A stretch of 64,000 bases of DNA from Escherichia coli (GCF_030013595.1 NZ_CP122768.1); one strand, 5' to 3'; shown: positions 22,537 through 27,708, counted from the first letter of the stretch. A program made the numbers and translations. Notes: generated by a model from the sequence alone, not told the origin.

Positions 22537-22851
22537 TCTTTCCGCGTCTCATCTTTATCGGTGAGACGCACCCTCAAAATTTCTTCTTCACTCCATTGTC
22601 TTTTCGCTTTACTCCCGTTCATTCAACTTAAGTTTCCATTTTTTTGCATTACTGCTATCTGACAGACCTCCGTTTTTTTGTTGATAAAACACTCTTTTTG
22701 ACGTTTTTACAGACTAATTGAGCGTGAAGTGTGCAAACGATAAAAGTGTGGGAAAAATTGTTTGACTTATAAGTCTCAGAAAGTAATATGTGCGCCACGC
22801 AGCGACGATGAGCGATAAACAAGTTCTTCGAAGCACTCGTAAGAGGCGTGT

Positions 22852-22944
22852 GGTGAGGTGGCCGAGAGGCTGAAGGCGCTCCCCTGCTAAGGGAGTATGC
22901 GGTCAAAAGCTGCATCCGGGGTTCGAATCCCCGCCTCACCGCCA
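22852..22944 (+). tRNA. serV: tRNA-Ser (anticodon GCU), long variable arm
   Basis: 93-nt cloverleaf ending in CCA; anticodon loop CTGCTAA. Confidence 0.9.
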
Positions 22945-22947
22945 TTT

Positions 22948-23024
22948 GCATCCGTAGCTCAGCTGGATAGAGTACTCGGCTACGAACCGAGCGGTCGGAG
23001 GTTCGAATCCTCCCGGATGCACCA
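22948..23024 (+). tRNA. tRNA-Arg (anticodon ACG), copy 1
   Basis: 77 nt GCATCCGTAGCTCAGCTGGATAGAGTACTCGGCTACGAACCGAGCGGTCGGAGGTTCGAATCCTCCCGGATGCACCA. Confidence 0.9.
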
Positions 23025-23139
23025 TATTCTACGTACTTTCAGCGATGAAGGTATAGAAGAGGTGGCGGTAATAACCGCAGGCACCAGGGAGGATAACGTT
23101 GCTTTAGCAACGGCCCGAAGGGCGAGCCGCAAGGCGAGT

Positions 23140-23158
23140 AATCCTCCCGGATGCACCA
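23140..23158 (+). pseudogene. 3'-terminal remnant of a tRNA-Arg copy (AATCCTCCCGGATGCACCA)
   Basis: 19-nt exact match to the 3' end of the flanking tRNA-Arg genes, embedded in an over-long spacer. Confidence 0.5.
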
Positions 23159-23222
23159 TCTCTTACTTGATACGGCTTTAGTAGCGGTATCAAAAAATCT
23201 GCAGTAAAGTAAGTTTCCCGAT

Positions 23223-23299
23223 GCATCCGTAGCTCAGCTGGATAGAGTACTCGGCTACGAACCGAGCGGTCGGAGGTTCGAATCCTCCCGGATGCACCA
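23223..23299 (+). tRNA. tRNA-Arg (ACG), copy 2
   Basis: Identical 77-nt sequence. Confidence 0.9.
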
Positions 23300-23401
23300 T
23301 ATTCTCCGTAATCATCAGTGATGATGGTTAAGATGGATTTTCTTATTTGATATGGCTTTAGTAGCGGTATCAATATCAGCAGTAAAATAAGTTTTCCCGA
23401 T

Positions 23402-23478
23402 GCATCCGTAGCTCAGCTGGATAGAGTACTCGGCTACGAACCGAGCGGTCGGAGGTTCGAATCCTCCCGGATGCACCA
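23402..23478 (+). tRNA. tRNA-Arg (ACG), copy 3
   Basis: Identical 77-nt sequence. Confidence 0.9.
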
Positions 23479-23688
23479 TATTCTCCGTAATCTTCAGCAA
23501 TGAAGGTATCGAAGAGGTAGCGGTTCTAACCGCAGGCACCATCTTCTCCAAAAAATTTCCTTCAAAAATATCTCATTTCTAAATAACTACTTTATCCATT
23601 TCCTGAATTTTCTTCTCCTTCGCCATCAGCGACAAAATCAAGCAATTACGCTAAAGTAGCGTCATATTTTTCGACTTGCGAGAAGACC

Positions 23689-24255
23689 ATGTACGAGCGT
23701 TATGCAGGTTTAATTTTTGATATGGATGGCACAATCCTGGATACGGAGCCTACGCACCGTAAAGCGTGGCGCGAAGTATTAGGGCACTACGGTCTTCAGT
23801 ACGATGTTCAGGCAATGATTGCGCTTAATGGCTCGCCCACCTGGCGTATTGCTCAGGCGATTATTGAGCTGAATCAGGCCGATCTCGACCCGCATGCGTT
23901 AGCGCGTGAAAAAACAGAAGCAGTAAGAAGTATGCTGCTGGATAGTGTCGAGCCGCTTCCTCTTGTTGAAGTGGTGAAAAGCTGGCATGGTCGTCGCCCA
24001 ATGGCTGTAGGAACGGGGAGTGAAAGCGCCATCGCTGAGGCATTGCTGGCGCACCTGGGATTACGCCGTTATTTTGACGCCGTCGTCGCTGCTGATCACG
24101 TCAAACACCATAAACCCGCGCCAGACACATTTTTGTTGTGCGCGCAGCGTATGGGCGTGCAACCGACACAGTGTGTGGTCTTTGAAGATGCCGATTTCGG
24201 TATTCAGGCGGCCCGTGCAGCAGGCATGGACGCTGTGGATGTTCGCTTGCTGTGA
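23689..24255 (+). CDS. yqaB: HAD-superfamily sugar phosphatase (fructose-1-phosphate phosphatase)
   Basis: 188 aa; HAD motif I near the N-terminus (IFDMDGTILDT). Confidence 0.85.
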   Translation: MYERYAGLIFDMDGTILDTEPTHRKAWREVLGHYGLQYDVQAMIALNGSPTWRIAQAIIELNQADLDPHALAREKTEAVRSMLLDSVEPLPLVEVVKSWHGRRPMAVGTGSESAIAEALLAHLGLRRYFDAVVAADHVKHHKPAPDTFLLCAQRMGVQPTQCVVFEDADFGIQAARAAGMDAVDVRLL

Positions 24256-24665
24256 GTGAAGCGTTATCGCTTTTCTCGTTGTTTGCCAGTAGTTTTCTCA
24301 GCGCTACACTATTACCCGGCAACTCCGAAGTCGTGCTGGTGGCAATGTTGCTTTCCGGGATCAGTCATCCCTGGGTTTTAGTTTTAACAGCAACAATGGG
24401 TAATAGCCTTGGAGGGTTAACTAACGTTATCCTTGGGCGTTTCTTTCCATTGCGTAAAACATCGCGCTGGCAAGAGAAAGCTACCGGCTGGCTGAAACGC
24501 TATGGTGCAGTCACGCTATTATTAAGCTGGATGCCCGTGGTTGGCGATTTACTGTGTCTGTTAGCGGGATGGATGCGCATCTCCTGGGGGCCGGTAATCT
24601 TTTTTTGTGCCTTGGTAAAGCGTTACGCTATGTTGCAGTTGCAGCAGCGACCGTTCAGGGCATGA
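24252..24665 (+). CDS. yqaA: Small inner-membrane protein YqaA (DedA-related)
   Basis: 137-aa hydrophobic ORF overlapping yqaB stop; start codon approximate. Confidence 0.8.
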   Translation: MSEALSLFSLFASSFLSATLLPGNSEVVLVAMLLSGISHPWVLVLTATMGNSLGGLTNVILGRFFPLRKTSRWQEKATGWLKRYGAVTLLLSWMPVVGDLLCLLAGWMRISWGPVIFFCALVKRYAMLQLQQRPFRA

Positions 24666-26316: not shown

Positions 26317-26389
26317 AAAAAGGCCACTCGTGAGTGGCCAAAATTTCATCTCTGAATTCAGGGATGATGATAACAAATGCGCGTCTTTC
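26317..26389 (-). ncRNA. micA: MicA (SraD) Hfq-dependent sRNA with intrinsic terminator
   Basis: Minus strand reads GAAAGACGCGCATTTGTTATCATCATCCCTGAATTCAGAGATGAAATTTTGGCCACTCACGAGTGGCCTTTTT, matching MicA as I recall it; located between gshA and luxS. Confidence 0.85.
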
Positions 26390-27029: not shown

Positions 27030-27708
27030 TTTTCAAATGCGCCTATAAGGCTCTCTTACCAGCCGCGCCCTAACAGGCGCACACGATCTGACATTTGCAT
27101 CCAACTTCGTTACTTACGGCCCGTAAACGGGCTGCCCGGATAGGGAATCGATAACTGATCTCCCATTTTATCCTCTTCAAGCTGGTGCTTTATGTAATCC
27201 TGTATCTTCGCCGTGTTCTTACCCACTGTATCGACGTAGTACCCTCTGCACCAGAACTCCCTGTTCCTGTATTTGAATTTCAAATCACCAAACTGCTCGT
27301 AAAGCATCAGACTGCTTTTCCCTTTCAGATATCCCATAAACCCGGATACGCTCATTTTGGGCGGGATCTCCACAAGCATATGGATATGATCTGCACAGCA
27401 TTCAGCTTCCAGAATCCGTACGCTTTTCCACTCACACAGCTTTCTCAAAATACTGCCTATTGCTCTACGCTTCTCTCTGTAGAACACCTGTCTTCGGTAT
27501 TTTGGCGCAAAAACTATGTGATATTTACAGTTCCATCGGGTGTGCGCTAAGCTCTTTTCGTTCCCCATTGGGACCCCCTTTTGATTTCTTGTTTGACACT
27601 TGCAGTTGCCAGACCGCAAGGTGTTTTAACAAATCAAAAGGGGTTTTAATAACTGGCTCAAAGCTGAAAGCTTTCCGGAACCCCCAGCCTAGCTGGGGGT
27701 TTTCTGTG
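27030..27708 (-). mobile_element. IS200-family insertion sequence (IS200/IS605 family); ends approximate
   Basis: HUH tnpA ORF; left end (high coordinates) has two hairpins typical of IS200: cccccagc..gctggggg terminator-like hairpin and a long stem-loop occluding the tnpA RBS; lies between convergent luxS and emrB terminators. Confidence 0.8.
27110..27568 (-). CDS. tnpA: IS200 transposase TnpA (HUH single-strand transposase)
   Basis: 152 aa from MGNEKSLAHTRWNCKYHIVFAPKYRRQ; HxH motif (HIHMLV) and catalytic Tyr (RGYYVDT). Confidence 0.9.
   Translation of the reverse strand: MGNEKSLAHTRWNCKYHIVFAPKYRRQVFYREKRRAIGSILRKLCEWKSVRILEAECCADHIHMLVEIPPKMSVSGFMGYLKGKSSLMLYEQFGDLKFKYRNREFWCRGYYVDTVGKNTAKIQDYIKHQLEEDKMGDQLSIPYPGSPFTGRK

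Follow-up and report, generated by a model that had tools for sequence, protein, structure and literature searches.

A three-copy allele of the Escherichia coli serV-argVYZQ tRNA operon, with a tRNA 3'-end fragment that probably belongs to an RtT-type spacer element

The serV-argV-argY-argZ-argQ operon of Escherichia coli K-12 (b2695-b2691) carries four tandem tRNA-Arg(ACG) genes, and in strain MG1655 these four genes are separated by spacers of 198, 62, and 198 nt and followed by a tail of 280 nt. Tandem tRNA genes are known to vary in copy number, as in the duplications described in Pseudomonas (PMC10954465), and tRNA genes also serve as att sites for integrative elements. A further described system is the RtT RNA, encoded by the repeats of the tyrT and tyrV loci (Rfam RF00391; rttR in K-12), which lie on the same strand as a tRNA gene and directly 3' of it. 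For the tyrT operon, Bosl and Kersten (1991), as cited in PMC4986893, reported that rtT RNA is a discrete RNA released by tRNA processing.

We examined a stretch of E. coli DNA of 64,000 nucleotides (NZ_CP122768.1), which we refer to throughout as the window. Its gene order, alaS-csrA-serV-arg-yqaB-yqaA-gshA, determined from ORFs and annotated relatives, is syntenic with that of K-12 and other E. coli, and the annotated relatives matched across the full 1.2-kb query at 98.0 to 99.3% identity. The serV gene, a tRNA-Ser(GCU) at 22852-22944 on the plus strand, was recognized by ARAGORN, by an Rfam tRNA score of 56.8 bits, and by its correspondence to the K-12 serV position. Starting 3 nt further on is a tandem series of tRNA-Arg(ACG) genes, all on the plus strand: copy 1 at the argV position (22948-23024; ARAGORN, Rfam 67.1 bits, and identity to the K-12 arg genes), copy 2 (23223-23299), and copy 3 (23402-23478), which is the final gene of the array, the latter two likewise found by ARAGORN, Rfam, and exact match. 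The three genes are identical across all 77 nt, just as a prior reading made from the DNA sequence alone (hereafter the sequence-only reading) had reported.

We found that the window shares with the K-12 operon its flanking genes, identical serV and tRNA-Arg genes, and the leader and tail modules described below, but that it contains three tRNA-Arg genes where K-12 contains four; the annotation of argV, argY, argZ, and argQ in K-12 bears out the number that the sequence-only reading had given for K-12. Three versus four copies is allelic variation at the same locus. The two operons also differ in their spacer elements, which we call R: K-12 has three complete copies, whereas the window has one, its second and third having been cut to 38 and 63 nt. 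The feature is real and the locus is a textbook one, and everything we observed falls within known kinds of variation, namely tandem tRNA copy-number variation and RtT-type spacer elements. We consider it highly probable that the region is the E. coli serV-argVYZQ operon in a minority allele with three arginine tRNA genes instead of four, and that the apparent tRNA remnant in its first spacer is the 3' end of an R element, intrinsic to that element, older than the split between Escherichia and Salmonella, and no by-product of recent copy loss. This is one joint judgment, covering the three-copy operon allele, the modular anatomy of its spacers, and the remnant as an intrinsic part of R.

Upstream of serV, a scan for promoter consensus returned a candidate operon promoter, TTGACT-16 nt-TAATAT (22762-22789, plus strand; 9/12 matching positions); promoter-type consensus hits were no more numerous than in shuffled sequence, and this site is a pattern match only. 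Several candidate features within the array were set aside. An ARAGORN call of a 'tRNA-Arg(tcg)' on the minus strand at 22968-23039 is a mirror artefact of copy 1; the Rfam hits there were weak, antisense, and attributable to chance. Several ORFs overlapping the array span tRNA genes and were judged spurious, and other Rfam hits below threshold (Plastid-ycf2, mir-9128, HPnc0260, and others) were dismissed as antisense or chance matches to tRNA-like sequence.

Comparison of 20 E. coli arrays revealed that each spacer is built from two modules. The first, a leader of 62 to 64 nt that we call P (TCTCTTACTTGATA...CCCGAT), is present directly 5' of every downstream tRNA gene. The second, R, is optional and about 134 nt long; it starts with TATTCT... 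right behind the upstream tRNA gene, and its 3' end (...GAGTAATCCTCCCGGATGCACCA) repeats the last 19 nt of that tRNA. Spacers of 62 to 64 nt are P alone, those of 197 to 199 nt are R plus P, and those of 102 nt are a truncated R plus P, while the tail measures 147 nt without R, 279 to 280 nt with R, and 210 nt with a truncated R. Position-specific P sequences are constant, and spacer and tail lengths vary exactly by the presence, absence, or truncation of R.

The window follows this scheme throughout. Between copies 1 and 2 lies a spacer of 198 nt (23025-23222) that consists of R1 and P1. R1 is a complete RtT-like element of 134 nt (23025-23158, plus strand), comprising a 5' hairpin region and a 78-nt core and identified from the Rfam RtT model, its predicted fold, and its match to K-12. 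P1 (TCTCTTACTTGATACGG...CCCGAT; 23159-23222, plus strand), recognized from the array comparison, is a 64-nt pre-tRNA leader, and in strains OkiPb01699 and SC434, which have no R at this position, P1 alone makes up the entire 64-nt first spacer. The second spacer is 102 nt long (23300-23401) and, in alignments, resolves into a 38-nt 5' fragment of R without the core or the 3'-end copy (23300-23337, plus strand; aligned with full R) and a 64-nt P leader (23338-23401, plus strand). This type of 102-nt spacer also occurs in 28Eco12, OkiPb01699, ECA64, and 7/2. The sequence-only reading was right that the first spacer exceeds the second in length; the 198-nt spacer is the standard form, however, and it is the second that has been shortened.

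From copy 3 to the ATG of yqaB there is a 210-nt tail. It begins with a 63-nt 5' part of R that ends in GCACCA and has lost its core (23479-23541, plus strand; aligned with the K-12 tail), the deletion amounting to 70 nt relative to the K-12 tail and lying between two GCACCA repeats. The block following copy 1 at 23038-23086 recurs after copy 3 at 23493-23541 with 90% identity, a repetition that the sequence-only reading had already noticed. ECA64 and CB6837 share the deletion junction at 100% identity, and other strains have it too. The remaining 147 nt (23542-23688, plus strand), defined by the array comparison as the segment 3' of the array that reaches the start codon of yqaB, form the whole tail in 94_0962, 28Eco12, and H10407, in which no R follows the last gene; a terminator-like hairpin was placed at 23648-23662 (plus strand) by a pattern scan only. 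The boundaries of the presence/absence polymorphism of R fall exactly on repeats. R is present or absent as an exact cassette bounded by a 20-nt repeat (the tRNA end and the R end), a pattern that fits recombination or slippage between the repeats. Deletions between microhomologies within R, such as the GCACCA repeats of the tail, would be a further source of variation.

R1 ends in an exact 19-nt copy of the tRNA-Arg 3' end, running from T-loop A59 through CCA (23140-23158, plus strand). With one additional matching nucleotide, it forms a 20-nt direct repeat with the end of copy 1 (23006-23025 and 23140-23159). Four occurrences of the 20-mer AATCCTCCCGGATGCACCAT are found in the window, three of them at the ends of the tRNA-Arg genes and the fourth at 23140-23159, with zero occurrences expected from 100 shuffles of the window. 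The sequence-only reading had located this copy accurately, and had explained it as what was left when unequal recombination in the array removed most of a fourth tRNA-Arg gene from this strain. Such an origin would fit both the difference between four copies in K-12 and three in the window and the exactness with which the fragment reproduces the tRNA 3' end. The same spacer with the same fragment, however, is found in strains that have all of their genes: the first spacer of the window matches the argV-argY spacer of K-12 at 197 of 198 positions (1 SNP), the 3'-end copy is present in four-copy K-12, 94_0962, ST69, ECA64, and others, and an R with the 3'-end copy occurs in the matching array of Salmonella houtenae. 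Given that the copy occurs in genomes with all four genes, it cannot be the residue of the window's missing gene. Nor does the sequence around it look like that of a truncated tRNA gene, since what precedes the fragment is a conserved RtT core and not a tRNA body, and the fragment is not confined to arrays where a full copy is missing. Moreover, what separates the window from a four-copy relative is a single complete unit of 275 bp, with no partial gene. The leftover-gene explanation is thus almost certainly wrong, and unequal recombination, while it accounts for the three-copy state, did not leave the 19-nt copy behind.

We infer instead that the fragment as an intrinsic part of R is of tRNA origin only in a deep sense, through an event that would predate the Escherichia-Salmonella split and be unrelated to this strain's missing gene. 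The comparison documents a natural three-copy allele and corrects an interpretation of a tRNA 3'-end fragment that was plausible but mistaken. It also suggests that short exact copies of tRNA 3' ends beside enterobacterial tRNA genes are usually the ends of RtT-type elements and not integration scars or decayed genes.

To judge from sequence comparison, R is a diverged short-form relative of the RtT RNA family (RF00391). R1 scored 29.4 bits against the Rfam RtT model over its full length and 35.8 bits at model positions 47-130, values that lie below the gathering score of 45, and every Arg-linked R received an RtT hit, at 22.8 to 36 bits (22.8 to 31 bits for the K-12 and ST69 Arg copies). The alignment covers AACGUUGC-N4-GCAACGGCCCGAAGGGCGAG, a variable hairpin, GAGUAAUCC, and the 3' end, and the conserved core motif of R has a single occurrence in the window. 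Like the tyrT and tyrV elements, R1 lies on the same strand as a tRNA gene and directly 3' of it, terminates in 19 nt copied from the tRNA 3' end, CCA included, contains the core AACGUUGC-N4-GCAACGRCCCGAAGGGCGA with a variable hairpin and GAGUAAUCC, and has a closing helix formed between the 5' arm and the 3'-end copy; the conserved core and hairpins are thus those common to bona fide RtT members. It differs from them in score, given that the K-12 tyrT/tyrV copies reach 133 to 137 bits versus 29 to 36 bits for the window R, and in length, R being a short form without the roughly 40-nt 5' module of the long form (GAGAACC...GGUUCGA...GAGCG.AGCGAGA).

An Arg-linked long form in Yersinia scored 70.8 bits, above the gathering score, and is therefore an RtT member, while Pro-linked elements scored 82 to 100 bits, Lys-linked elements 55 to 61, a Ser-linked element 55, and short Arg forms of E. 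coli and Pantoea 31 to 41. A scan for the core AGCRACGRCCCGAAGGGCGA, in which each species was represented by a single genome, found at least 120 loci. Among the matches listed, cores with a same-strand tRNA gene within 500 nt upstream lay downstream of Arg, Lys, Pro, Tyr, or Ser tRNAs, specifically Arg(ACG), Lys(UUU), Pro(UGG and CGG), Tyr(GUA), and Ser(UGA), and their hosts were Enterobacterales, Photobacterium/Enterovibrio, and Gilliamella. Most of these listed tRNA-linked cores were followed, about 34 nt after the core, by an exact 18- to 20-nt copy of the 3' end of their own tRNA; a minority of the matches listed came from distant phyla, had no tRNA nearby, and look like chance matches. 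In annotated genomes, two elements after tRNA-Pro in Salmonella Infantis carry the name 'RtT RNA', and R is unannotated in the arg operon in the K-12 annotation. The TRIP1 repeat, which we encountered in a paper citing Rudd 1999, is an unrelated repeat. In several species (loci L065, L017, L060, and L014) a GC-rich terminator-like hairpin with a T-run directly follows the tRNA gene and precedes each RtT unit, and the unit of hairpin, RtT, and 3'-end copy is tandemly repeated there, like the K-12 repeats downstream of tyrV.

We assessed whether R behaves like a structured RNA by folding R1 and by counting compensatory changes among its relatives. The predicted fold of R1 has an energy of -57.7 kcal/mol (z = -5.4). 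Its 78-nt core (23081-23158, plus strand), delimited by the fold, the core motif, and compensatory changes, is predicted to contain three hairpins and ends in ACCA; in this fold the helices GCACC/GGAUGC and GGGAGGAU/AUCCUCCC close the three hairpins, which include the conserved AACGTTGC-N4-GCAACGGCCCGAAGGGCGA. For covariation we used 31 distinct short-form elements linked to Arg and Lys tRNAs, restricting the count to short forms because automated detection of the 5' arm gave noisy results on the long ones. Across these 31 elements, 89.6% of cells were paired, and compensatory changes were found in two places. The last hairpin covaries (pair 47-56: GC16/CG9/AU4/UA1), and the closing helix tracks the T-stem of the host tRNA (pair 7-70: GC16/UA7/AU3; another pair: GC27/AU3). 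None of 500 shuffles reached the covariation score. Hairpins 2 and 3 were invariant, in part because the search pattern required them, and the outer GCACC/GGAUGC pairing was confined to Arg-linked elements.

This structure bears on what may become of R once the operon is expressed. R is presumably cotranscribed with the tRNAs and would probably be excised as a small RNA by tRNA-processing enzymes, as for tyrT rtT RNA, since its core is predicted to fold into a helix that resembles an acceptor/T-arm and ends in ACCA. Both the release of such an RNA from the transcript and any role it might play are suggested by analogy with the tyrT element; in the literature we searched, there was no experimental evidence of a released RNA for the arg copies. 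In some strains no inter-tRNA spacer contains R, and given that each position, or even every position, can be without it in one strain or another, any function of R would be dispensable.

The sequence-only reading had also raised the possibility that a partial tRNA 3' end marks a former integration site. Here, the 3'-end copy would be the attR-like site of a phage or island that once integrated into a tRNA-Arg gene and was later almost entirely deleted. Blocks of identity running from the T-loop to the 3' end are reportedly typical of integrase sites in tRNA genes (Williams 2002, cited in PMC9897764). The R locus shares two traits with such att sites, in that a 20-nt direct repeat extending from the T-loop to CCA flanks an insert, and in that strains differ in whether they have this insert, with boundaries exactly at the repeat. 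Between the two copies of the repeat there are just 114 nt, with no integrase or other gene and no cargo, the elements show RNA-type covariation, and the core follows five tRNA types, each time with its own tRNA's end, an arrangement that a single site-specific integrase site would not produce. The R core also had zero exact matches among 2.9 million viral contigs, and no phage, island, or plasmid copy was found, the phage and plasmid BLAST hits to the core being mislabelled chromosomal records. An ordinary phage or island integration scar is therefore not supported, and we regard this origin as highly improbable.

With the 3'-end copy assigned to R, the three-copy state can be considered separately. 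Of 5,426 complete E. coli genomes searched by BLAST with the 77-nt tRNA-Arg(ACG) gene as query, 5,425 contained a match, for a total of 21,501 places and a mean of 3.96 per genome (median, 4; range, 1 to 9), and in an evenly spaced sample of 60 genomes, three places were found in 4 (about 7%), five in 2, and two in 1. These frequencies are BLAST place counts and counts from the 60-genome sample, and assembly errors may underlie some of the records with one or two copies. Array alignments and copy counts agreed with the expectation of the sequence-only reading that E. coli strains would not all have one structure. Apart from the window's own, three-copy layouts included 62|198|147, 198|198|280, and 64|198|280 (spacers and tail, in nucleotides), a five-copy layout was 64|62|62|63|280, and two- and one-copy records also exist. 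These layouts show what appears to be recurrent loss and gain of units. The array also seems to change fast, as strains that differ by 1 to 2 SNPs per kb in the flanks differ in layout, and so it could serve as a fine-scale marker.

A few individual records deserve mention. One or two tRNA-Arg(ACG) genes were seen at the locus in some of NZ_CP008697 (ST648), NZ_CP195014 (MC1061), NZ_CP172127 (GF43), NZ_CP084529 (Origami2-DE3), and NZ_CP081008 (XL10-Gold), the last of which gave six places for the tRNA-Arg(ACG) query. Origami2-DE3 has a partial relA beside yqaB and no array at that position, and we left it out of the comparison as an engineered or rearranged laboratory strain.

The four-copy array of ECA64 suggests how the window's layout could have arisen. 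Its layout is 198|198|102|210, and its spacers 1 and 3 and its tail are 100% identical to spacers 1 and 2 and the tail of the window. By this comparison, the window is equivalent to the ECA64 haplotype minus exactly one 275-bp unit (a tRNA gene and a 198-nt spacer), with no remnant left. We propose that unequal homologous recombination between identical 77-bp tRNA genes adds or removes whole units of tRNA plus spacer, and that the window lineage lost one 275-bp unit in this way from an ECA64-like four-copy array; this mechanism for the copy change is inferred from its end products. AR_0114 also has a window-type layout, but its lineage-specific SNPs are those of strain 7/2 (198|62|102|210), and the three-copy layout would therefore have arisen independently there, by loss of a 139-bp unit. 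As in the Pseudomonas duplications (PMC10954465), whole units are apparently lost and gained, breakpoints lie inside identical tRNA genes, and the changes recur across lineages. The Pseudomonas duplications, in contrast, are large and were selected in the laboratory, whereas the units here measure 139 to 275 bp, belong to one operon, and represent natural alleles in public genomes.

Alternatively, the isolate could truly have four copies, one repeat unit having been dropped by the assembler. A dropped unit would mimic a clean unit deletion, and the assembly shows a 1-nt homopolymer difference in yqaA (T7 versus T8 in AR_0114) that could be a sequencing error. The unit missing relative to ECA64, however, holds a 198-nt spacer with SNPs of its own and is not a perfect duplicate. 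The exact layout of the window is moreover collinear in 11 independent complete genomes, and its nearest relative by flanking SNPs, HCP5S3_I2, also has three copies in a different layout (198|63|210), to which can be added the frequency of three-copy arrays in the evenly spaced sample of complete genomes. Given that the missing unit is an imperfect duplicate and that independent assemblies show the same or related states, we conclude that assembly collapse is improbable and that the three-copy array is in all likelihood the true state of this isolate.

Loss of one gene from the array could have consequences for tRNA supply. In the three-copy genomes we examined, no additional copy was present elsewhere, as each record gave three places. 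The loss of one of four genes for the sole tRNA type matching the 77-nt query would probably lower the supply of tRNA-Arg2 modestly. An engineered K-12 strain with argV only had 16-fold less tRNA-Arg2, a growth defect in rich medium (LB), and effects on TadA editing (PMC13170351). Therefore, natural alleles with one to five copies are candidates for fitness differences, and tRNA-Arg(ACG) gene dosage may matter.

The junctions between RtT-type elements and their tRNA-derived ends offer a modest side lead on the architecture of the family. In the long forms (Arg in Yersinia, Lys, Pro, and Tyr), the 5' strand of the cognate T-stem followed by TTCGA stops at the point where the 18- to 20-nt 3'-end copy resumes, and this T-stem/3'-end junction was found at loci L036 and L133 (Yersinia), L014, L029, and L040 (Lys), L065 and L017 (Pro), and L100 (Tyr). 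In one Yersinia element, the insert is preceded by 23 contiguous tRNA-Arg nucleotides that begin in the anticodon arm and reach the T-loop. Because the junction is continuous in tRNA coordinates, the conserved module of about 63 nt looks like a clean T-loop insert. In the short form linked to Arg in E. coli, GCACCAG-GGAGG resembles the 5' strand of the acceptor (GCAUCCG) joined directly to the T-stem, and the modeled element would resemble an acceptor/T-arm minihelix with an expanded T-loop. It is possible, but on balance we think it unlikely, that RtT-type elements, including the one at 23025-23158, are natural 'tRNA-scaffolded' small RNAs, in which a conserved, structured module of about 45 to 65 nt would be placed precisely within the T-loop of a shortened copy of the neighboring tRNA. 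If so, six or more tRNA species in Enterobacterales, Vibrionaceae, and Orbaceae would share one insert, and it would represent either a mobile module that targets T-loops or one functional RNA module recruited repeatedly. Neither a T-loop-targeting module nor repeated recruitment was found in the literature we searched.

Other features of the window were observed outside the array. In yqaA (24252-24665), the window has a run of 7 T at 24600-24606 where AR_0114 has 8 T. The shorter run shifts the frame of the last 25 or so codons and gives an ORF of 137 aa instead of 142 aa. The same 1-nt gap is seen against other E. coli flanks long enough to cover the site, and yqaA is flagged as defective in ECA64 and ETEC6333 too. 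Either the 7-T run is a homopolymer error of sequencing, or yqaA is a true pseudogene here. At the Rfam gathering threshold, we also found the MicA sRNA (26318-26389, minus strand; 83.9 bits), the STnc490 Hfq-binding RNA (27578-27701, minus strand; 146.4 bits), and a further tRNA (56336-56408, plus strand; 73.7 bits).
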